From: Nostocaceae cyanobacterium
GTDB lineage: Bacteria > Cyanobacteriota > Cyanobacteriia > Cyanobacteriales > Nostocaceae
DNA: 8,342 nt
Assembly (NCBI GenBank): GCA_035298905.1
Contig: DATGXQ010000622.1
Span: 1-8,342, forward strand
Direction: 5' to 3'
Shown: positions 1-8,342 of the stretch, in pieces
How the letters are laid out: every line of letters starts with the position of its first letter
Position numbering within the stretch: position 1 is the stretch's first letter
Translations under genes and position numbers: made by a program
The notes under the pieces: model-generated
Told to the model about the DNA's origin: nothing
The model's database searches: none
What the model saw: the letters and a program-made list of their open reading frames with translations, nothing else

Positions 1-761
1 TCATCCTACCGTCAATTACTAAAGACACTCTCCAGCAAATTTGTCACCATGTCAAATATCGCAAGTTAGTTTATGACGACTGGCAAATGGTTAACAAACA
101 GGGTCGCGGTTTAGGTATCAATGCTTTATTTTACGGTAGTAGTGGCTTAGGTAAAACCACCGCCGCCGAAATTATCGCCAAAGAATTAGACCTAGACCTC
201 TATCGAGTTGACCTGAGTGCTGTAGTCAGTAAATATGTAGGTGAAACTGAAAAAAACCTCTCCCAAATTTTTGATGCCGCAGAATCCGGGAGTGTAGTTT
301 TGCTGTTTGATGAAGCCGATGCCTTGTTTGGCAAACGTTCTGAAGTCAAAGACTCCAAAGACCGCTACGCAAACATGGAGGTTAGTTACCTATTGCAAAG
401 AATGGAAGCCTACCGGGGCTTATCAATTCTCACCACCAATAAAGAAGATGATATGGATGGGGCTTTCCGCCGCAGATTACGCTTTATTGTGGAATTTCCC
501 TTTCCCAAAATACCAGAACGCATGGAACTATGGCGGCGGGCTTTTCCACCCCAAATGCCTACTGAGGGTTTAGATTTTGAGAAATTAGCCCAACTCAATG
601 CCACCGGTGCAAACATTCGCAGTATTGCCCTCCATGCCGCATTTATTGCCGCAGCCGCAGGAGAACCATTAAAAATGACTCACATGTTACAGGCTACCCG
701 TCAGGAAATGACAAAGTTGGGTAAGTCTTTAACAGCCGCAGATATTGAAGATTGGGTGTAG
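1..761 (+). CDS. AAA+ ATPase, C-terminal part (5'-partial, continues off the left edge); contractile-injection-system-associated (Afp15/Cis15-like) family
   Basis: The frame is open from nt 3 with no stop before the ATG at 87, so the gene starts upstream of the window. Motifs: Walker A GSSGLGKT (135-158), Walker B VVLLFDEAD (294-320), sensor-1 ILTTN, Arg-rich FRRRLRF, and the KYVGETEKNL and RYANMEVSYLLQRME blocks typical of this ATPase family. Stop is TAG at 759-761. A DUF4255 gene follows directly, as in eCIS loci. Confidence 0.9.
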   Translation, partial: ILPSITKDTLQQICHHVKYRKLVYDDWQMVNKQGRGLGINALFYGSSGLGKTTAAEIIAKELDLDLYRVDLSAVVSKYVGETEKNLSQIFDAAESGSVVLLFDEADALFGKRSEVKDSKDRYANMEVSYLLQRMEAYRGLSILTTNKEDDMDGAFRRRLRFIVEFPFPKIPERMELWRRAFPPQMPTEGLDFEKLAQLNATGANIRSIALHAAFIAAAAGEPLKMTHMLQATRQEMTKLGKSLTAADIEDWV

Positions 762-815
762 GGGAGAGGGGGGACACGGAGAGGGGAGAGGTGGATGAGG
801 GAGATGAGGAGAAAT
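761..815. repeat. Polypurine (G/A) tract of about 55 nt directly after the ATPase stop codon
   Basis: The sequence is ggggagaggggggacacggagaggggagaggtggatgagggagatgaggagaa. All but 5 positions are purines on the + strand. Confidence 0.85.
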
Positions 816-840
816 TGTCCACAGTAATTTCCACATCAGA

Positions 841-882
841 ACTCGGCACTTCGAGAAAATTACTCGGCACTTCGAGAAAATT
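841..882. repeat. Perfect tandem direct repeat, 2 x 21 bp (actcggcacttcgagaaaatt), 21 nt upstream of the DUF4255 start
   Basis: Positions 841-861 and 862-882 are identical by direct reading. The 21-bp period is about two helical turns. Confidence 0.95.
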
Positions 883-903
883 AATCAAAAAAAGGCGCTT
901 GTT

Positions 904-2166
904 ATGAGTAATGATGTTGCAATTGCCACTGTTACGGCTACTTTAAAGTACATTTTAGAAGAGGGAGTGACTAGAAATGGTGGTGCAGTGGAAGTGACCA
1001 CTCTTCCTCCTAATACTGAAGGGGAAGGAATTCCCAAATTAGGTGTAAATCTTTATCTCTACCGGATTACCCCTAATATGGCTATGGCTAACTCAGATTT
1101 GCGTCCCTTGCGTCCTAAAGGGGAGTTAATCAAAAAATTTCATAGTGCGCTAGATTTGCATTACCTGATTACTTTTTATGGTAATGATGCTAAATTAGAG
1201 GCGCAAAAACTCTCTGGTTTAGTGATTCGGACTTTAGCAGATAATCCCATTCTCACCCCAGAGTTGATTACTAGAGCTTTAGCCCTATCCACAGATCCAG
1301 ATTTGGGGCGATCGGATCTCATGGAACAAACTGATAGAGTCAGAGTAACACCAAATTTCTTAACTAACGATGAGCTATCAAAAATTTGGTCAACTTTGGT
1401 ACAAACACCATACCGTTTATGTCTAGCTTATCAAGCCAGCATGGTATTACTTGAAGGGACAAGACATGGTGAAGTACCTCTACCCTTGCGGGAACGTCGT
1501 TCTTATCTCATTCCTAATCAGCCTGTGATTGAACGTGTTTTATCTGATGCTGGACAATGGAAACCTATTTTGGCAAATAGCACTTTACTCATTCAAGGTA
1601 AGCAGTTAGCAGGAGTACAAACATGGGTGCAACTCGGTTCTCAAAAATTCTCACCCCAAAACGTCACAGATACGGAAGTAACACTATCTTTAGCAGAAAT
1701 AAATCCCGAAGATTTACGAGCAGGGATTCAGAGTGTGCAGATTGTGCATTTTCAAGCAGACACTCCCGAACCTCTACCAGCTGTAGAGTCAAATGTAGTT
1801 GCTTTTGTCTTATGTCCTGCTATTGAATCTGTGGGAGTTGAGAATCTGCAAATGCAACGCAGAGGTACTAGAGATGGCCAGATTACCCTAGAGTTAAATA
1901 TGCAGGTGGGGACAACTCAGCGAGTGCTATTGCTACTCAATGAAGTGCCAGGTGATTCTGGTGATGGGTCAGGTGCTTATATTTTTAAGGCAGAAAAGCG
2001 AACAACAGAGACGCGATCGCCTGTATTTTTATGCCAAAATGTGAAAGTAGGAACTTATTTAGTCAGAGTACAAGTTGATGGGGCAGCCAGTCAATTAAAA
2101 GTCGATAATAATCCTGAAAGTCCCACCTTTGATCAATACAACGAACCTCTATTAGTAATTGAGTAA
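904..2166 (+). CDS. DUF4255 (Pvc16/Afp16 N-terminal-like, tail-terminator family) protein with a C-terminal beta-rich extension of about 215 aa
   Basis: The N-terminal 200 aa or so match the DUF4255 pattern as I recall it (MSNDVAIATVTATLKYILEEG..., LGVNLYLYRITPN, LDLHYLITFYG, EAQKLSGLVIRTLADNPILT). Residues 205-420 (nt 1516-2163) read as two beta-sandwich-like segments: LLIQGKQLAG..VQLG..VTDTEVTLSL..AGIQSVQIV and ITLELNMQVG..VKVGTYLVRVQVDGAAS. Start is ATG and stop is TAA. Confidence 0.85.
   Translation: MSNDVAIATVTATLKYILEEGVTRNGGAVEVTTLPPNTEGEGIPKLGVNLYLYRITPNMAMANSDLRPLRPKGELIKKFHSALDLHYLITFYGNDAKLEAQKLSGLVIRTLADNPILTPELITRALALSTDPDLGRSDLMEQTDRVRVTPNFLTNDELSKIWSTLVQTPYRLCLAYQASMVLLEGTRHGEVPLPLRERRSYLIPNQPVIERVLSDAGQWKPILANSTLLIQGKQLAGVQTWVQLGSQKFSPQNVTDTEVTLSLAEINPEDLRAGIQSVQIVHFQADTPEPLPAVESNVVAFVLCPAIESVGVENLQMQRRGTRDGQITLELNMQVGTTQRVLLLLNEVPGDSGDGSGAYIFKAEKRTTETRSPVFLCQNVKVGTYLVRVQVDGAASQLKVDNNPESPTFDQYNEPLLVIE
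2013..2020. repeat. HIP1 octamer GCGATCGC (a second perfect copy is at 3938-3945; 7/8 copies are near 1309 and 5287)
   Basis: Direct reading. HIP1 is over-represented in many cyanobacterial genomes, which supports the taxonomic inference. Confidence 0.8.
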
Positions 2167-2172
2167 AACTAA

Positions 2173-2292
2173 ATGCTCAAAAATATCCAAGATGCTGTTT
2201 GGGGAATGGCGGCACGATTAGCTAGGGCAGCGTTCAAAGCTGAATTCGGAAATCATACCAAAGTCCCACAAACAGCAATAATACCAATTTAA
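2173..2292 (+). CDS. Hypothetical 39-aa ORF (MLKNIQDAVWGMAARLARAAFKAEFGNHTKVPQTAIIPI) 6 nt after the DUF4255 stop; may be a gene remnant
   Basis: The ATG at 2173 follows the TAA at 2164-2166 closely. The ORF ends in a TAA at 2290-2292 that overlaps the first two bases of the AAAATTC heptamer array. There is no clear Shine-Dalgarno sequence and no recognisable domain. Confidence 0.2.
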   Translation: MLKNIQDAVWGMAARLARAAFKAEFGNHTKVPQTAIIPI

Positions 2293-2317
2293 AATTCAAA
2301 ATTCAAAATTCAAAATT
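2291..2317. repeat. STRR-type tandem heptamer array (AAAATTC) x about 3.9
   Basis: Direct reading gives aaaattc aaaattc aaaattc aaaatt. Tandem heptamers are characteristic of heterocystous cyanobacterial intergenic DNA. Confidence 0.9.
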
Positions 2318-2358
2318 AAGAAATCCAGATGTAACAATGGTTTCTGATTTTGGATATG

Positions 2359-2386
2359 TTGCAGAATTTTAGAGAATTGGTATAAT
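2359..2386 (+). promoter_or_regulatory. Sigma70-like promoter candidate: TTGCAG - 16 nt - (TGg)TATAAT, with no downstream + strand ORF
   Basis: The -35-like TTGCAG is at 2359-2364. An extended -10 TGgTATAAT is at 2378-2386. The predicted TSS is near 2393. It points into a 120-nt non-coding stretch ending in a T-run (2464-2475), then runs antisense into the NlpC/P60 gene. In AT-rich spacer DNA this could be a chance match. Confidence 0.3.
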
Positions 2387-2510
2387 TCCTAATGCAAAAT
2401 CATTTACACATCAAAGTCAATGATTTACAAGGATGAAAACTACTCATCAGCCTCCGTCAGCACCTTATTTTTTTAGGTAATTATTTTTGCTCACGTACCG
2501 ATTTACTATT

Positions 2511-3233
2511 TTAATTAAATTGTTGCCACTTGACAAGATAAACAGGAACTTTCACCCAATAATTATTTTGATCAGGTACTTGAACTGTAATTACTTTTCT
2601 CACCCCTGGATCTGCTTCAATCCAAACATTATCACCTATATATCCTAAAGTATGTACACCATCCTGAGTTACTGCAATATCTCCTTTTTGGATTTTTGTA
2701 TGATCCAATTCATTAATGCTATTAGCACTCATAAATACTTTGGTTTTATCTCGATAACCTTGGGCTAAAGCTTGAGCAGAAGTATCAAACCACCAAAGAG
2801 AAAATCCTTCTCTAATTAGTTTTGGGTTTAGGGAAATGAAACCATATTTTAAATTAGCATTGACTAAACCTTGTCTGACTAAACCTGAACAGTCAATCCC
2901 GACTCTATTTTCTCCTCCCCAAACATATTTAGTTCCATTAAAAGCTTGCATTTCTTGGACGTAATACTCTCTGAGGGTGTTTGTATCGGCTGCATTTCCA
3001 GGTAAAATCATAATTAGGCTAATTATGAATGTGAGCAATAAATAAGTGAAGCGAATAATTTTATATTGCCAGAATAACCATAATCCACCAAATAACAGCC
3101 AGAGAAATAATAAAACTGTGGCTAAACGTAAAATTCCATAGCTGATAGGATAAAACAGTAAAATAATCAAGAAAAACCAAGACCAACTCCATAAATGTAA
3201 TAAATAGCGACGCTTGATAATTTTTAATGTCAT
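2511..3233 (-). CDS. Membrane-anchored NlpC/P60 (C40) family peptidoglycan endopeptidase
   Basis: The N-terminal 80 aa or so are strongly hydrophobic, suggesting about three TM helices (WSWSWFFLIILLFYPISYGIL..., VLLFLWLLFGGLWLFW, YLLLTFIISLIMILPG). The catalytic domain has YVWGGENRVGIDCSGLVRQ (Cys motif) and GDIAVTQDGVHTLGYIGDNVWIEA (His motif). I place the start at the ATG (3231-3233, complement), which is preceded by GGGAGA. The ORF-track start at 3248 is a TTG. Confidence 0.85.
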   Translation of the reverse strand: MTLKIIKRRYLLHLWSWSWFFLIILLFYPISYGILRLATVLLFLWLLFGGLWLFWQYKIIRFTYLLLTFIISLIMILPGNAADTNTLREYYVQEMQAFNGTKYVWGGENRVGIDCSGLVRQGLVNANLKYGFISLNPKLIREGFSLWWFDTSAQALAQGYRDKTKVFMSANSINELDHTKIQKGDIAVTQDGVHTLGYIGDNVWIEADPGVRKVITVQVPDQNNYWVKVPVYLVKWQQFN

Positions 3234-3442
3234 TTTGTTATCTCCCAAAACTGTTGGATTTTATTCAACAAAGTAGATTTTCTGGTTTTTGATGCGTCAG
3301 GTGAGGCATCCTATGCACTGAAACTTATACAAAAATCAAAAGTTAAATTTCGGCTAATTGATGAATTATTTCTCATCCCTATTCACCAGTCACTAATCAC
3401 CAATCTGTTGTATCCTCAAAAAAGTTGTTTAGTTTTTAGTTT

Positions 3443-4312
3443 ATGTCTGCATCTCAAAGATTACGGGAATTATTAGCGCGTCCAGAAATTATCATTATTC
3501 CTGGTGTTTATGACTGTCTGAGTGCTAAACTGGCTCAAAAGGTGGGTTTTGAAGTAGCAGCAACTAGCGGTTTTGGTATCGCTGCTTCGACTTTGGGTTT
3601 ACCAGATTATGGCTTTTTGACTGCGACGGAAGTGCTTTATAGTGTAGGAAGGATTGCACAATCTATTAATATTCCTTTGATTGCAGATTTAGATACAGGT
3701 TATGGAAATGCTTTAAATGTGATGCGGACTGTTAAAGATGCGGTGAGATTGGGGTTAGCTGGGGTAATTTTGGAAGACCAGGAATGGCCGAAAAAGTGCG
3801 GACATTTTGAGGGGAAACGGGTAATTTCTGCTTTGGAACATGCGGGAAAGATTCGTGCTGCGGTGGATGCTAGGGGGGATAGTGGGTTGGTGATTATTGC
3901 GCGGACAGATGCACGGGGGGTTTTGGGTTTGGAAGAAGCGATCGCTCGTGGACAATTGTACATTAATGCGGGTGCAGATGTCTTGTTTGTGGAAGCACCG
4001 CAATCGGTGGAAGAGTTACAAATTATCGCTGCGGCTTTCCCCAATACTCCCTTAGTCGCTAACATTGTCGAAGGTGGGAAAACTCCCGAAATCTCCACCG
4101 CAGATTTACAAAAATTGGGTTTTAAGATTGTCTTCTTCCCCCTCACCACATTAATGGCTGCAACGGAAGTGATTAGTGCTAGTTTACAGCATCTTAAAAC
4201 ACAGGGAACAACCGCTAACTTTCCCGGTTTGATGAATTTTCGAGATTTTCAAGAATTAATCGGTGTTCCCCAATATCTGCAAATTGAAAAAAAGTATACT
4301 GGTGATTGGTGA
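3443..4312 (+). CDS. Isocitrate lyase/PEP mutase superfamily enzyme (2-methylisocitrate lyase / oxaloacetate decarboxylase-like; often annotated as carboxyvinyl-carboxyphosphonate phosphorylmutase)
   Basis: Supporting blocks: PGVYDCLSAKLAQKVGFEVAATSG, IPLIADLDTGYGNALNV, and GVILEDQEWPKKCGH carrying the ICL-type K-[KR]-C-G-H signature (3791-3805), plus IIARTDA and GADVLFVEAP. The stop TGA is formed inside the GGTGATT heptamer array. Confidence 0.9.
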   Translation: MSASQRLRELLARPEIIIIPGVYDCLSAKLAQKVGFEVAATSGFGIAASTLGLPDYGFLTATEVLYSVGRIAQSINIPLIADLDTGYGNALNVMRTVKDAVRLGLAGVILEDQEWPKKCGHFEGKRVISALEHAGKIRAAVDARGDSGLVIIARTDARGVLGLEEAIARGQLYINAGADVLFVEAPQSVEELQIIAAAFPNTPLVANIVEGGKTPEISTADLQKLGFKIVFFPLTTLMAATEVISASLQHLKTQGTTANFPGLMNFRDFQELIGVPQYLQIEKKYTGDW

Positions 4313-4342
4313 TTGGTGATTGGTGATTGGGTACTGGGTATT
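4301..4342. repeat. STRR heptamer array (GGTGATT) x 4, then GGGTACT and GGGTATT; overlaps the last 4 codons of the upstream CDS
   Basis: Direct reading gives ggtgatt four times (4301-4328), then gggtact gggtatt (4329-4342). Confidence 0.95.
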
Positions 4343-4430
4343 AATTCTTATTGACCCGATATCCCAATCTGTGTATTTTCCTGCTGACTTAATTACAAAA
4401 TATAGCAATCCTAAATGAGATGTGAACAGT

Positions 4431-4458
4431 CCCAATACCCAATACCCAATACCCAATA
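4431..4458. repeat. STRR heptamer array (CCCAATA) x 4, the reverse complement of the GGGTATT register, inverted relative to the 4301-4342 array
   Basis: Direct reading gives cccaata four times, followed by cccc. Confidence 0.95.
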
Positions 4459-4502
4459 CCCCGCCTCCACGAGTCAATTCATAACTCAAATCGGATTCTT
4501 AT

Positions 4503-5156
4503 ATGGTTAATTCACCACCAATTTTAGAAACTATTCTCACCGATTCTTGGGTTGCCGTAACTTGGGAAGATTTTCTCACATTTGCAGATGACCCAATGTT
4601 AGTAAATGGTAGATTTTATTATGATGAAGGTTCTATGATGATTGAAATATCTCCGCTAGGTTCTGCCCACGGTCAAATTCATAGTATTACTGCCAATTTA
4701 ATTATCTTATATGCCACAATCAAAAATATTACCATCAAAGGATTAATCAATACCAGTTTTAGGAAAATAGGAATTAGAGGCTGTCAGCCAGATATGGCTT
4801 TTTATATTGGCAATAATCTGAATTTACCTCCTCGCAATAATGCACCAGTTAATTTAGATAAAGTAGATCCACCCACTTTAGTCATAGAAATCGCCGCTTA
4901 TTCCTTAGAAGATGACACAACCCGCAAACAGAAACTTTATCAAAGATTAGGAGTAGCAGAGTATTGGGTAATTGATGTGAATAAAAATCGAGTAATTGCC
5001 ACTTGTTTAGATGCTCATACAACTATACCAATTCAAGAATCACAGGTTTTACCAGGCTTAAAGATTGAGTTAATTGAATTAGCTTTGCAAAAGTCGCAAA
5101 CTGAAGATGATGGTGCAATTAATAGATGGTTATTGTCAAATTTTGGTCAGAATTAA
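4503..5156 (+). CDS. Uma2 family (DUF820) PD-(D/E)XK putative endonuclease
   Basis: Family hallmarks are present: QPDMAFY (catalytic Asp region), PTLVIEIAAYSLEDDTTRKQKLY (E-x-K region) and RLGVAEYWVIDV. Length is 217 aa, with an ATG start and TAA stop. Confidence 0.9.
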   Translation: MVNSPPILETILTDSWVAVTWEDFLTFADDPMLVNGRFYYDEGSMMIEISPLGSAHGQIHSITANLIILYATIKNITIKGLINTSFRKIGIRGCQPDMAFYIGNNLNLPPRNNAPVNLDKVDPPTLVIEIAAYSLEDDTTRKQKLYQRLGVAEYWVIDVNKNRVIATCLDAHTTIPIQESQVLPGLKIELIELALQKSQTEDDGAINRWLLSNFGQN

Positions 5157-5170
5157 TTATAGTAGAATTC

Positions 5171-5205
5171 AGGAGTCAGGAGTCAGTAGCCAGAAGTTAG
5201 GAGAC
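5171..5205. repeat. Degenerating STRR heptamer array (AGGAGTC AGGAGTC AGTAGCC AGAAGTT AGGAGAC)
   Basis: Direct reading. There are two perfect copies followed by three diverged copies. Confidence 0.8.
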
Positions 5206-5220
5206 ATTTTCGGGAATGAA

Positions 5221-5250
5221 TGTAGAGACGTTCCATGGAACGTCTCTACA
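5221..5250. repeat. Perfect 30-bp palindrome tgtagagacgttcc|atgg|aacgtctctaca (13-bp stem, 4-nt loop); possible terminator or dispersed palindromic element
   Basis: The first 15 nt are the exact reverse complement of the last 15 nt. It lies 65 nt after the Uma2 stop and is followed by aaaggtttt, so there is no immediate U-tract. That makes the intrinsic-terminator assignment only tentative. Confidence 0.85.
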
Positions 5251-5282
5251 AAGGTTTTGATATTATGTAATATTATTTCCCT

Positions 5283-5311
5283 TTGACGATCGCCAATACA
5301 TGTTGTATAAA
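5283..5311 (+). promoter_or_regulatory. Sigma70-like promoter candidate for the NLR-like locus: TTGACG - 17 nt - TATAAA
   Basis: TTGACG is at 5283-5288 and TATAAA at 5306-5311, with a 17-nt spacer. The predicted TSS is near 5318. This gives about 30 nt of leader to the ATG at 5349, which has a GAGG Shine-Dalgarno at 5340-5343. Confidence 0.35.
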
Positions 5312-5348
5312 GTGATCATCTAGCAGAATGCCATCGGGTGAGGTGGGG

Positions 5349-5813
5349 ATGGAACCTTTAAGCGCTGGTGCAGTAGCCTTAGTTGGCTGGTTATTTGGTA
5401 AAATCATTGACTGGACAGCCGAAAAAGCCTTGGATGCTGGTGCATCAGGGGTATTACGGTTAATCAAAAGCAAGTTACCGACGGCTAAAGTAGCAAAGGT
5501 GGCTGCATTACCTCAAAGTGAGCGAGACGACATTTTAGAAGCTGAGTTAGTGCAAGAAGTGGAACAAGTAGCAGCAGAAAATCATGAACTGCGGACAGCT
5601 ATAGAAGCATTTGGCAATTATTTTCAGCAAGTGGCAGAAAAGAATCCTGAAATTAAAGAAAAGTTTGCGGCTTATGTGCAAAATTGCCAAGGTTTAATTA
5701 TTACAGGTGATAATAATACAATAGATAGTCCTACTATTATCCACGAAAATAAAGGAATCAATATTTCTGGTCGTGCCAAGATTGATAAACTAATTATTCA
5801 AAAAGATACTTGA
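5349..5813 (+). CDS. Hypothetical protein, likely the N-terminal (effector-like) module of the downstream NB-ARC/TPR protein: hydrophobic glycine-zipper helix, acidic helical region, two beta-strand pseudo-repeats
   Basis: The longest ORF starts at the ATG at 5328. The ATG at 5349 is preferred because of the GAGGTGGGG Shine-Dalgarno 5 nt upstream. The protein starts MEPLSAGAVALVGWLFGKIIDW. It ends at TGA 5811-5813, which is in the same frame as the following NB-ARC ORF. Confidence 0.6.
   Translation: MEPLSAGAVALVGWLFGKIIDWTAEKALDAGASGVLRLIKSKLPTAKVAKVAALPQSERDDILEAELVQEVEQVAAENHELRTAIEAFGNYFQQVAEKNPEIKEKFAAYVQNCQGLIITGDNNTIDSPTIIHENKGINISGRAKIDKLIIQKDT
5811..5813 (+). other. Single in-frame TGA (context TGA-C) separating two co-phased ORFs (5328-5810 and 5814-8339)
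   Basis: 5328, 5811 and 5916 all fall in the same codon phase. Codon-by-codon reading of 5814-5915 shows 34 sense codons and no ATG or GTG. Confidence 0.95.
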
Positions 5814-5915
5814 CTGGAGTCGTCTGGACGGGGTACGGACAAAGTTAAAACCCCAAATAATTTTAGTTTTCCTGGTACTCCTCACTTTGTCGGTCGAGAG
5901 AGAGAGTTAAACTTA

Positions 5916-8342
5916 TTGCATGAGAAATTACAGACACCTGGTGCTGTGGCTATTTCCGCAGTTGCGGGGATGGGTGGAGTCGGGAAAACTGAATTAGCAA
6001 TCAAATATATTAAACTGCATCAAGATAAATATCCCGGTGGTGTTTGTTGGTTTAATGCGCGAGAACAAAATTTAGCTGTGGAAGTCGTGCGCTTTGCTCA
6101 GTTATACATGAATTTGCAAGTCCCGCAGCAGAACTTCCGAGGAGAACAGTTAAGCTTAACGGAACAGGTGGCTTGGTGTTGGCAACATTGGCAACCAGCG
6201 CAAGGACTGGTATTAGTAATTTTAGATGATGTCACCGATTTAGAATTTTGTCGAGATTTGCTACCCCAAACAAACCGCTTTCGGGTGGTGATGACTACCA
6301 GATTACATCTTCATCCCGATGTTGAGGAAATACCTCTGGATGTGCTACCAGAGGACAAAGCATTAGAGTTATTGACACTTTTAGTCGGTGAGAAAGTGCA
6401 ACGGGAAGCGGAAACAGCGAAAGAGTTGTGTGCTTGGTTGGGATATTTACCCTTGGGTTTAGAGTTGGTGGGGCGGTATTTAGCCAAGAAACCCCGATGG
6501 ACTTTAGCGAAAATGTTAGAACGGCTCAAAGTTCAAAGTGTGGAAGATGAAGCGCTGAAACCGGAACTGTTCAAGACTTTGAGTACAGCCCAAAGGGGAG
6601 TTAAAGCGGCTTTTGAGTTAAGTTGGCTAGAACTTGCACCGATGACTCAGCGAGTAGGGGAATTGTTGAGTTTATTTGCTTTAAGTGTGTTTGCTTGGGA
6701 GTGGGTAGAAGCAGCGAGTAATTTACTGAGTTGGGCTGCTATTGATGTGGAAACAGCCAATGAGCAACTTTATGAGCGCCATTTAATTAATATTGGGGAT
6801 GAGATAGGAGAGTATTGGCAAATACATCCTTTGATTCGGGAGTTTTTGGGGTTGAAGTTGCGGGAAAGGGAACAAGCGCAGGAGGTGAAAACGGCTTTTG
6901 CTGCTGTGTTTGTGGAGATTGCTAAAACGATTCCTAAGTCAATCACTCAAGAGGTTGTTAAGTCGGTAGAAAAGGCGATTCCGCATTTAGCGAGAGTTGC
7001 AGACAATATAATTGATGCCGTTAGTGATGAGAATTTAGTTTGGCTTTTTTGGGGTTTAGGAATATTTTATGAAGGAAAAGGATTTTATACACTAGCAGAA
7101 CCTTGGCGTAAACAATGTGTATCAGTAGTAAAAAATCGCTTGGGAAAAGAGCATCCCGATGTTGCTACCAGTTATAACAATTTGGCAATGCTCTACTATT
7201 CTCAAGGTAAGTATACGGAAGCTGAACCACTTTATTTACAAGCCTTAAAACTGTTACAATCCCTACTTGGACAAAAACATCGTCATGTCGCCACCAGTTA
7301 CAACAATCTAGCATTACTTTACCAATCTCAAGGCAAATACAAAGAAGCAGAACCTCTTTTAATTAAAGCATTAGAAATAAGAAAACACCTGCTAGGACTA
7401 GAACATCCAGATGTTGCTACCAGTTATAACAATTTGGCAGCATTATACATATCTCAAGGCAAATACAAGGAAGCAGAACCTCTTTTAGTTAAAGCATTCA
7501 ATCTGTGGAAAAATCTACTAGGACAAGAACATCCTAATGTGGCCACCAGTTACAACAATCTAGCATTACTTTATAAATTTCAAGGCAAATACAAAGAAGC
7601 AGAACCTCTTTTAGTTAAAGCATTAAATCTGTGGGAAAATCTACTAGGACAAGAACATCCTAATGTAGCTACTGGTTATAACAATTTGGCATTACTCTAC
7701 AATTATCAAGGTAAATATGAGCAAGCAGAGCCACTTTTAATTCAAGCATTAAATCTGTGGGAAAATCTGCTAGGACAAGAACATCCCGATGTTGCCACTA
7801 GTTACAACAGTTTGGCATTACTCTATTTTTCTCAAGGCAAGTATACAGAAGCTGAAGAACTTTATATCAAAGCGTTGCAAATGAGAGAACGCTTGCTAGG
7901 ACAAGAACATCCCGATGTTGCTACCAATTATTACAACTTAGCAAGACTGTACAAATCTCAAGGTAAGTACACAGAAGCTGAAAAACTTTATATCAAAGCA
8001 TTGCAAATGAGAGAACGCTTGCTAGGACAAGAACATCCCGATGTTGCTACCAGTTACAACGATTTGGCAAAACTCTACTATTCTCAAGGTAAGTATACGA
8101 AAACTGAAGAACTTTATATCAAAGCATTGCAAATGAGAGAATGTCTGCTAGGGCAAGAACATTCCGATGTCGCTTCCAGTTACAATAATTTAGCATCACT
8201 CTACTACTCTCAAGGCAGGTACACGGAAGCTGAACCACTTTTTGTTAAAGCTTTAGAAATTGCTGAACGCAGTTTAGGGGTAAATCATCCCAATACAATT
8301 ATTATCCGTGACAATCTCCAACTGTTGCGCGAGATGTTGTAG
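5916..8342 (+). CDS. NB-ARC (STAND/NLR-like) NTPase fused to a TPR (TPR_10/12, kinesin-light-chain-like) array. The ORF-track start is a TTG, and homology continues upstream to 5814
   Basis: Motifs: Walker A GMGGVGKT (5967-5990), Walker B LVLVILDD (6207-6230), RVVMTTR, GLPL-type GYLPLGLE (6441-6464), MHD-like HPLIRE (6825-6842), then 42-aa TPR units from 7149. The conserved pre-P-loop motif FVGRERELNLL lies at 5886-5918, mostly upstream of the only candidate start. Stop TAG is at 8340-8342, the window end. Confidence 0.9.
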   Translation: MHEKLQTPGAVAISAVAGMGGVGKTELAIKYIKLHQDKYPGGVCWFNAREQNLAVEVVRFAQLYMNLQVPQQNFRGEQLSLTEQVAWCWQHWQPAQGLVLVILDDVTDLEFCRDLLPQTNRFRVVMTTRLHLHPDVEEIPLDVLPEDKALELLTLLVGEKVQREAETAKELCAWLGYLPLGLELVGRYLAKKPRWTLAKMLERLKVQSVEDEALKPELFKTLSTAQRGVKAAFELSWLELAPMTQRVGELLSLFALSVFAWEWVEAASNLLSWAAIDVETANEQLYERHLINIGDEIGEYWQIHPLIREFLGLKLREREQAQEVKTAFAAVFVEIAKTIPKSITQEVVKSVEKAIPHLARVADNIIDAVSDENLVWLFWGLGIFYEGKGFYTLAEPWRKQCVSVVKNRLGKEHPDVATSYNNLAMLYYSQGKYTEAEPLYLQALKLLQSLLGQKHRHVATSYNNLALLYQSQGKYKEAEPLLIKALEIRKHLLGLEHPDVATSYNNLAALYISQGKYKEAEPLLVKAFNLWKNLLGQEHPNVATSYNNLALLYKFQGKYKEAEPLLVKALNLWENLLGQEHPNVATGYNNLALLYNYQGKYEQAEPLLIQALNLWENLLGQEHPDVATSYNSLALLYFSQGKYTEAEELYIKALQMRERLLGQEHPDVATNYYNLARLYKSQGKYTEAEKLYIKALQMRERLLGQEHPDVATSYNDLAKLYYSQGKYTKTEELYIKALQMRECLLGQEHSDVASSYNNLASLYYSQGRYTEAEPLFVKALEIAERSLGVNHPNTIIIRDNLQLLREML
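7149..8339 (+). repeat. Coding tandem repeat: 9 complete 126-bp (42-aa) TPR units plus a terminal partial unit
   Basis: Units start at 7149, 7275, 7401, 7527, 7653, 7779, 7905, 8031, 8157 and 8283 (partial), each opening with (E/K/N)H(P/R/S)xV/T. A 52-nt stretch is identical between 7875-7926 and 8001-8052. Confidence 0.95.

Follow-up and report, generated by a model that had tools for sequence, protein, structure and literature searches.

We analyzed an 8,342-nt stretch of DNA from a Nostocaceae cyanobacterium (assembly GCA_035298905.1, contig DATGXQ010000622.1, positions 1 to 8,342; hereafter the window), in which the gene for a small Bell-family effector and the open reading frame (ORF) of an NLR-like sensor follow each other in the same frame and are separated only by a TGA codon. 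The effector gene (5349..5813) comprises 154 amino acid codons and the TGA, as supported by its translation, its homology and a ratio of nonsynonymous to synonymous substitution rates (dN/dS) of 0.35 relative to its orthologue. The sensor ORF (5814..8342) starts directly after this stop, encodes at least 842 amino acids with NB-ARC and TPR domains recognized by Pfam, has neither an amyloid motif nor a usable start of its own, and runs off the end of the window. This junction, a candidate site of programmed stop codon read-through, is the subject of the present report. All features of the window described below lie on the forward strand.

The effector gene was assigned the start codon ATG 5349 rather than ATG 5328, since the orthologue and all of its relatives (22/22) open with ME/DP[LI][TS], and since a GAGG together with the TTGACG/TATAAA pair upstream is kept in the orthologous locus, designated L001. 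The latter pair forms a promoter-like site recognized by eye (5283..5311), with a -35 hexamer TTGACG (5283-5288), a 17-nt spacer and a -10 hexamer TATAAA (5306-5311). Both hexamers are conserved in L001 while their flanks diverge. The site was not listed by a consensus scan because the rule of that scan wants a T at position 6 of the -10 hexamer.

Translation of 5349-5810 gives the N-terminal hydrophobic helix MEPLSAGAVALVGWLFGKIIDW (5349..5414), in agreement with the preliminary description of this DNA, which had placed a hydrophobic segment there. This helix is the best-conserved part of the family. The window protein opens with MEPLSAGAVALVGW, compared with the family consensus MEPLTAGAIA, and by eye it matches the 'MEPIS'-type signature that the Dyrka/Saupe group has reported for Bell, Hell, Bab and Avast2. 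The helical body of the Bell-like domain (residues 23-114; 5415..5690) follows. An AlphaFold2 (AF2) model built from a 23-sequence alignment (model madf43b1886cb) places helices at residues 6-22, 26-42, 45-52, 56-77, 79-98 and 100-116 and leaves the tail disordered. The charged, helix-prone stretch expected after MEPLSAGAVALVGWLFGKIIDW is thus covered by predicted helices that together span residues 6-116, and these six predicted helices fit the N-terminal helical domain of about 100 aa that is required of Bell proteins. The overall predicted local distance difference test score (pLDDT) of this model is moderate at 66, with values of 70-86 over residues 31-110, and a model from a two-sequence alignment was poor (pLDDT 50).

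A word search of 5.8 billion clustered proteins retrieved only the window protein and one orthologue, which shares 63% identity with it and is encoded at the syntenic locus L001 in a Nostocaceae metagenome-assembled genome. An exhaustive HMMER search over 1.8 billion representatives added 22 relatives with E-values from 1e-33 to 1e-4, all of them stand-alone proteins of 72-165 aa, mostly 130-165 aa. They constitute a small cyanobacterial family whose members belong nearly all to Nostocales. Their alignment consists of a hydrophobic helix MEPLTAGAIAxxTLL, a helical middle part and, in many of them, the C-terminal motif ENWQGINIKGGxNTIxNxTFNF. The motif ENWQGINIKGG...NF is listed as BASS7 in Table S2 of Dyrka et al. 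(2020, bioRxiv 10.1101/2020.01.06.895854) for Bell/NLR pairs of Calothrix, and the tails of our relatives follow the pattern seen in PAX60321.1 and AFZ01858.1, two Bell-side instances of that table, a comparison that is indirect in that it was made by motif pattern. Homologues of the NB-ARC protein in the window very often open with the same motif, MTNENWQGINIKGG...NF.

Since typical relatives of the effector end in BASS7 and the adjacent NB-ARC/TPR gene starts with it, a Bell/BASS assignment is supported. The proposal of a Bell-like execution module with amyloid-motif-like repeats tied to an NLR is therefore supported by these comparisons, to which the MEPLS start of the protein can be added. 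The homology of both partners supports the placement of the window module as a diverged new member of the Bell/BASS7 kind, which is itself known biology. As in the Bell/BASS7 pairs of filamentous cyanobacteria described by Dyrka, Saupe et al. (2020), a helical domain of ~100 aa with a hydrophobic N-terminal helix and a C-terminal motif of 20-25 aa is encoded immediately upstream of an NB-ARC/TPR partner. Pfam, NCBIfam and PADLOC scans of the effector module gave nothing significant.

The C-terminus of the effector carries GLIITGDNNTIDSPTIIH, followed by (EN K)GINISGRAKIDKLIIQ (5754-5801), KDT and the TGA at 5811-5813. The preliminary description had read this tail as two imperfect repeats of the pattern G-x-x-I-[ST]-G...I-D...I-I. 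A hidden Markov model (HMM) of BASS7 was built from 20 instances and compared with shuffled sequences (n=300). Both repeats are present, and the first one goes beyond chance: copy 1 (5691..5744, GLIITGDNNTIDSPTIIH) scores 11.4 bits as a diverged BASS7-like motif, a score reached by none of the 300 shuffles. The claim holds less well for copy 2 (5745..5801, ENKGINISGRAKIDKLIIQ), which is reminiscent of how the NLR-side BASS7 begins, EN(W)QGINIKGG, but is weak at 4.8 bits and is absent from the orthologue L001, where a single motif copy occurs. On the same HMM, bona fide BASS7 members score 39 bits. We regard the tail of the window protein, from its residual similarity, as an apparent diverged and duplicated derivative of BASS7.

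Within the sensor ORF, NB-ARC covers approximately 5898-6545 (Pfam, 2e-11), including a GMGGVGKT Walker A motif at ~5968-5991, and a TPR array occupies ~7011-8342 (TPR_10/TPR_12, 1e-134 or better). The succession of Walker A and TPR repeats fits an NLR-like STAND architecture. The ORF opens with LESSGRGTDKVKTPNN, in which no amyloid motif is found, and the window holds no copy of the motif at the NLR N-terminus. Two earlier statements, that the TGA comes directly after the motif and that the downstream ORF begins without a matching one, are accordingly correct for the window, while the motif occurs on both partners in 15 related loci. In the window, only read-through would bring the motif to the sensor. 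The first canonical in-frame start of the sensor ORF is TTG 5916, located 35 codons in and beyond the conserved segment FVGRERELxxL, and the first in-frame ATG encodes the M of the Walker A motif GMGGVGKT. Among close homologues of the sensor, including P0044, P0045, P0144 and P0145, other N-terminal adaptors replace BASS7, such as PF19954 (JGI name Effector-associated domain 10) and a BASS9-like MNQSNQDNAKGWQTQVEGG. This shows that N-terminal modules are extensively swapped in this NLR clade.

Altogether 30 related loci were tabulated from representative genomes, metagenomes, the contexts of sensor and module homologues, and complete plasmids. They fall into two classes of 15 loci each. In class A, the effector ends in BASS7 and the sensor has its own ATG and its own BASS7; the two genes overlap by ATGA in nine loci, and a spacer separates them in the other six, five of which have TAA and one TGA as the effector stop. 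In class B, the sensor lacks the motif and continues in frame 0 at zero spacing from a stop that is TGA in all 15 loci. Class B includes the window, L001, Nostoc sp. PCC 7120 plasmid gamma, Calothrix brevissima NIES-22, N. flagelliforme, Scytonema and Coleofasciculus. In L001, the TGA occupies the same place in frame and is followed by near-identical nucleotides. In-frame continuation and absence of the sensor's own motif are completely associated (Fisher p = 1.8e-6, a value that is not a true probability because the loci are related).

In the window, the in-frame UGA (5811..5813) is followed by CUG, and 14 of the 15 class-B loci have a C directly behind the stop. The next codon usually specifies leucine (CUG in six loci, CUA in seven, CUC in one) and is AUA once. 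In the six class-B loci examined, no canonical start codon appears in frame until 25-35 codons past the stop, and in nine of the 15 no ATG occurs in frame before the one for the M of the Walker A motif GMGGVGKT. RefSeq/PGAP annotation of class-B sensors resorts to CTG or ATT starts, or to later ones. Both a conserved in-frame stop and a downstream ORF without its own initiation site, as expected of read-through, are therefore found here. The same UGA and the RNA hairpin described below join three diverged homologous Bell subfamilies (hhalign 99.4%) to a variety of partners, namely NB-ARC-TPR, NB-ARC-DUF7779, NB-ARC with an APAF1-like helical domain, CHASE2, and CarboxypepD_reg+GUN4. The effector tails vary as well, with BASS7 in L010 and L036, a BASS9-like motif in PCC 7120 and others elsewhere. 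No instance of the junction was detected when viral contigs were scanned for it.

These features also bear on a two-gene operon, in which the sensor would be made by termination-reinitiation at a non-canonical codon by the stop (CUG, CUA, AUU) or at an internal TTG or GTG, the RNA structure would pause or retain ribosomes, and the sensor would signal to the effector without a shared amyloid motif. Classical members of the family are indeed tightly coupled by the ATGA overlap, CUG stands right after the stop in six of the 15 class-B loci, where annotation pipelines call CTG or ATT starts, and Anabaena lacZ reporters with CUG, AUA and AUC starts gained activity in a trcR mutant (PMC10272220). 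However, nine of the 15 loci have CUA, CUC or AUA, which are not known initiators, and yet the leucine is conserved. Frame 0 and zero spacing are kept in 15/15 loci and are restored in the window by a compensated frameshift, although reinitiation needs neither. Moreover, internal starts would lose the conserved FVGR region or fall within Walker A, and a motif-less sensor would have no evident means to activate a motif-bearing effector. Reinitiation is thus an unlikely explanation, though one to be taken seriously. A start in the -1 frame at the TTG overlapping the stop (tTGA) was also considered; in L010, hand translation showed that this frame closes after ~16 codons.

The RNA that follows the stop also supports the read-through reading. 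The 45 nt after the TGA are near-identical across loci whose effectors share only ~30-40% identity. RNAalifold predicted a 5-bp hairpin that begins 8 nt past the stop, at +12 from the U of the UGA. In the window, the 8-nt spacer CUGGAGUC (5814..5821) precedes the hairpin (5822..5840), which is composed of GUCUG (5822-5826), the 9-nt loop GACGGGGUA and CGGAC (5836-5840). The stem is paired in 75 of 75 cells over the 15 sequences, with changes on both sides at three of the five pairs, its variants being GCCCG/CGGGC, GCCCG/CGGGU, GUCCG/CGGAC, GUCCU/AGGAC, GUCUG/CAGAC and, in the window, GUCUG/CGGAC. When the 3' arm was slid by one to three columns, pairing fell from 97% to 8-47%. The hairpin is present in 15/15 class-B loci versus 0/15 class-A loci, and a covariance model gave strong matches at class-B junctions only. 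A weak second match of this model in L020 (5787-5853) was checked and attributed to chance. No Rfam family was matched at the junction or anywhere in the window.

The coding sequence across the element is likewise constrained. The proportion of synonymous differences (pS) is 0.32 over codons +1 to +16 versus 0.67 over codons +17 to +33, where its nonsynonymous counterpart relates to it as pN/pS = 0.52. Because the compensating substitutions mix synonymous and nonsynonymous changes, for example Pro to Ser together with Ala/Val to Thr, selection at the RNA level fits better than selection on the peptide. In the window and L001, a nucleotide gained in the loop and another lost before the C-run amount to a compensated frameshift, which turns the peptide ERERVKLNPP into GRGTDKVKTP but leaves the stem, the AAAGUUAAA segment and the reading frame beyond the element intact. 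The compensated frameshift of the window thus preserves the RNA rather than the peptide. Taken together, a 3' structure at the spacing known from read-through signals, covariation and synonymous constraint are all observed at this junction. The in-frame TGA conserved across 15 loci and the covarying hairpin would also explain why the sensor lacks a motif of its own.

A possible pseudoknot may extend the element (5830..5854), in which GGGG of the loop (5830-5833) would pair with CCCC (5851-5854). The C-run lies ~10 nt past the stem, 89% of the cells are paired with one compensatory change (in L033), and the pairing appears in the single-sequence minimum free energy folds of the window, L010 and L033, which is suggestive only. 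For a possible outer helix around the stop (UGACU/AGUUA), no covariation was seen.

Alternatively, the conserved segment might act at the level of DNA or of RNA processing, either as a boundary of recombination or of cassettes, where Bell modules would be exchanged between different sensors, or as an RNase site, with downstream ORFs that are poorly expressed or not at all. The near-identity of the ~45-nt junction, in spite of effectors that are only ~30-40% identical and of differing downstream domains, would suit such a boundary, as would the location of many copies on plasmids and the occurrence of TTGACTGGA both at the junction and within the effector gene. Against it speak the compensatory changes that keep an RNA-type stem paired, G-U pairs included, the reading frame that is kept across the junction, and downstream ORFs that are long, intact and under purifying selection. 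We consider this explanation improbable. The repeat itself, 9 nt long, is found twice in the window, at 5407-5415 (effector codons IIDW) and at 5810-5818 (the stop junction), with an 11-nt equivalent, ATTGACTGGAC, in L001; it may be due to chance or may have a bearing on alternative pairing or recombination.

The combination of UGA and hairpin also brings to mind selenocysteine and the bacterial selenocysteine insertion sequence (SECIS) element. Bacterial SECIS elements are stem-loops a few nucleotides downstream of the UGA with G residues in the apical loop, a geometry that the present hairpin fits loosely, as it stands a few nucleotides past the UGA and has G residues in its apical loop. On the other hand, no Rfam family was matched, SECIS models included if Rfam holds any. 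The UGA is situated in a variable linker without redox context and has no homologue with Cys or another sense codon, and the cyanobacteria discussed in the literature are described as devoid of the selenocysteine-decoding trait. Recoding as selenocysteine is hardly credible for these reasons.

Purifying selection acts on both ORFs. When the window is compared with L001, the dN/dS of 0.35 for the effector stands beside 0.25 for the sensor and 0.14 for its NB-ARC part, and in 13 loci in-frame ORFs of 360 to >840 aa remain open past the TGA. With a synthetic fusion of effector, W and sensor as the query, no relative was retrieved that has a sense codon in place of the stop. Low dN/dS, open ORFs and the lack of sense-codon relatives indicate that the UGA is old and retained, and not a recent lesion. 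They bear on the view of class-B loci as decaying pseudogenes, in which an ancestral effector-NLR fusion would have acquired a nonsense mutation and passed it on. Decay does occur, as L031 has lost its P-loop region, L005 is disrupted after the motif, and the sensors of L010, L022 and L035 are short at ~370 aa. Nevertheless, dN/dS is 0.14-0.35 on both sides of the stop, ORFs of the above lengths stay open in the 13 loci, the hairpin covaries, and the stop is always TGA and never TAA or TAG despite saturating synonymous divergence nearby, so that we judge decay to be a very improbable account of the class as a whole.

Several of the related loci deserve separate mention. L034, located on pCC7120gamma of the model strain Nostoc sp. 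PCC 7120 (record 65522-70384), encodes the effector WP_044520337.1, a 138-aa Bell-like protein with the BASS9-like tail MTQNNYDNSTGYQTKVE..., followed by TGA CTA and the hairpin GCCCG/CGGGU. Its annotated NB-ARC gene, for WP_044520336.1, is 4.4 kb long (~1460 aa), and the RefSeq start is a non-canonical codon 21 codons after the stop. In L020 (4001-5791; Calothrix brevissima NIES-22 plasmid4), the effector-UGA-hairpin junction leads into a CHASE2 membrane sensor of 433 aa, and in L008 (4001-5524; Nostoc sp. XA013) into a CarboxypepD_reg+GUN4 protein of 361 aa, neither of which is an NLR. Two loci are decayed. In L005 (4001-4576), the effector ORF continues past BASS7 into unrelated sequence and no NLR follows, and in L031 (863-1070) the junction is intact (TGA ATA) with the P-loop region of NB-ARC deleted.

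We infer that the UGA is a programmed read-through site, from which a short effector and a long effector-sensor isoform sharing one motif would be produced, and assign this reading a probability of roughly 55% on the basis of the comparative sequence evidence. At about even odds stands the more general proposition that a bacterial cellular family uses structure-assisted UGA read-through to derive, from one frame, an amyloid-controlled pore-forming effector and a low-stoichiometry effector-sensor fusion. According to the proposed mechanism, most ribosomes would stop at the UGA and release the free effector with its motif, and a minority, assisted by the structure at +12 and by the weak context that C gives the UGA, would read through to yield effector-motif-NB-ARC-TPR. 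The long form would sense a trigger and oligomerize, whereupon its motifs could nucleate an amyloid fold that templates the identical motif on the abundant short form. Templating would in turn free the N-terminal helix, which a bundle of ~110 helical residues would hold, for membrane attack, leading to abortive infection or programmed cell death. Nucleation and conversion of the short form by the long form are proposed by analogy with Bab/Agp and HET-S/NWD2, and the level of read-through, the membrane attack and the role in defense are to be understood as equally conjectural. Since read-through would give the sensor the effector's own identical motif, it would account for the much greater drift away from BASS7 in class-B tails compared with those of class A.

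A number of observations weigh against this reading. Structure-stimulated read-through of an ordinary stop is, to our knowledge, not established for bacterial cellular genes. The hairpin has only 5 bp, and its single-sequence folding z-scores (+0.07 to -1.1) are unremarkable. The compensatory changes represent few independent events among related sequences, for which shuffle statistics overstate significance. The lack of sense-codon relatives speaks for a conserved stop and is yet no direct proof of a functional fusion. With regard to the effector, the 4.8 bits of motif copy 2 are reached by 9 of the 300 shuffles, and the AF2 model is moderate (pLDDT 66). The likeness to HeLo (PF14479) and HeLo-like N (PF17111) envisaged in the preliminary description was not borne out, as neither gave a Pfam match at E <= 0.1, and the resemblance to fungal HeLo is an analogy without detectable homology. 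Foldseek comparison of the module model with the PDB returned nothing at E < 1, and a profile search of PDB sequences with the module returned designed coiled coils only; without a significant PDB match by structure or by sequence, the fold is not tied to Bab or HeLo.

Compared with known systems, the class-B arrangement combines familiar parts in a different manner. The published Bell/BASS7 pairs consist of genes with separate starts, and their NLRs bear a motif copy of their own. The window sensor has neither, and the effector motif is diverged, duplicated and joined to the sensor in frame via the UGA and hairpin. Nostoc sp. PCC 7120, NIES-22 and N. flagelliforme, which carry class-B loci, are absent from the supplementary tables of Dyrka et al. 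(2020). In E. coli, the Bell-like effector of Bab/Agp kills via amyloid signaling in phage defense (bioRxiv 10.1101/2024.11.07.622273). This abortive-infection system (BASS11; Ibarlosa et al. 2024) resembles ours in its small helical effector, whose 'MEPIS'-type N-terminal helix is cupped by other helices, in a C-terminal amyloid motif that is common to the sensor and, as proposed here, in cell death upon activation. In contrast, the Bab domain is shorter (~80 aa), and the TPR-GreA/B-PIN sensor has its own motif and start. The predicted read-through product corresponds to the order of execution domain, nucleotide-binding oligomerization domain and repeats found in Avast2 and in bNACHT02/11/23, which have an N-terminal Bell/'MEPIS' region, and in fungal HeLo-NLR fusions; however, these are plain fusions without a stop or an amyloid motif, whereas here the fusion would be a minor isoform beside the free effector.

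In Podospora anserina, HET-S/HET-s combines a pore-forming helical domain with a prion-forming region of two pseudo-repeats, which is templated by the NLR NWD2 with one repeat. The window effector is similar in having a helical domain and a C-terminal region with two pseudo-repeats; it differs in that there is no sequence or Pfam relation and that its second repeat is weak and absent from the orthologue. The closest parallels to the junction are found in viral read-through signals, namely the alphavirus type II UGA-CUA and the UAG of MuLV with an 8-nt spacer and a pseudoknot at +12. They share with the class-B loci an in-frame stop, leaky in the viruses and presumably so here, a C (often CUA) after the UGA, an 8-nt spacer and a structure from +12, and in viruses they provide two isoforms in a fixed ratio. 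The viral signals act on eukaryotic ribosomes and have structures of 50-177 nt, in contrast to the bacterial setting, 5-bp stem and possible pseudoknot described here.

Amyloid signaling from an NLR-like sensor to a pore-forming effector links bacterial, fungal and animal cell death, and has so far been described for two genes with a motif each. The class-B loci suggest a second solution with one frame, one motif and a leaky stop. If this is true, they would be a rare case in which read-through of a bacterial gene, chromosomal or plasmid-borne, is programmed and stimulated by a 3' RNA element without involving selenocysteine. The lasting match between the motifs of sensor and effector would also be understood, as they would always be identical and hence free to diversify, as in the class-B tails. 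The ratio of nucleator to executioner would be fixed, as with retroviral Gag/Gag-Pol, and the odd CTG and ATT starts in sensor annotation would be accounted for. The architecture of in-frame UGA and hairpin appears to be unreported; full-text literature searches found no paper with the motif string and nothing relevant on bacterial or cyanobacterial read-through. The idea is directly testable since Nostoc/Anabaena sp. PCC 7120, a genetic model, has one copy on its plasmid gamma. Reporter activity for stop codon read-through, frameshifting and non-AUG initiation increases in this strain when trcR is mutated (PMC10272220). Read-through depends on translational fidelity, and if it takes place at the junction, translational stress or infection might alter the dosage of the sensor, which is no more than an idea.

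The remainder of the window contains further genes and sequence features. An AAA+ ATPase gene (87-761), whose product matches Pfam AAA at 7e-28 and resembles the IetA/IteA anti-phage ATPases, precedes the gene of a Pvc16_N protein (904-2166; 3e-41). Together they have the appearance of the last genes of a PVC-like cluster or extracellular contractile injection system beside the NLR locus. The effector gene is preceded by Uma2 (4503-5156). The Uma2-effector intergenic region contains a perfect 28-nt palindrome, GTAGAGACGTTCCATGGAACGTCTCTAC (5222-5249), preceded by a CAGGAGT-type short tandem (5170-5186). This palindromic stretch has no counterpart in the orthologous locus, which has an extra SMI1_KNR4 gene between Uma2 and the effector. 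XisH/XisI, ParE-type toxin-antitoxin pairs, PIN and Uma2 cluster around L001 (8915-9654 and 9787-11333) and in the flanks of L029 and L030, which suggests defense or mobile islands.

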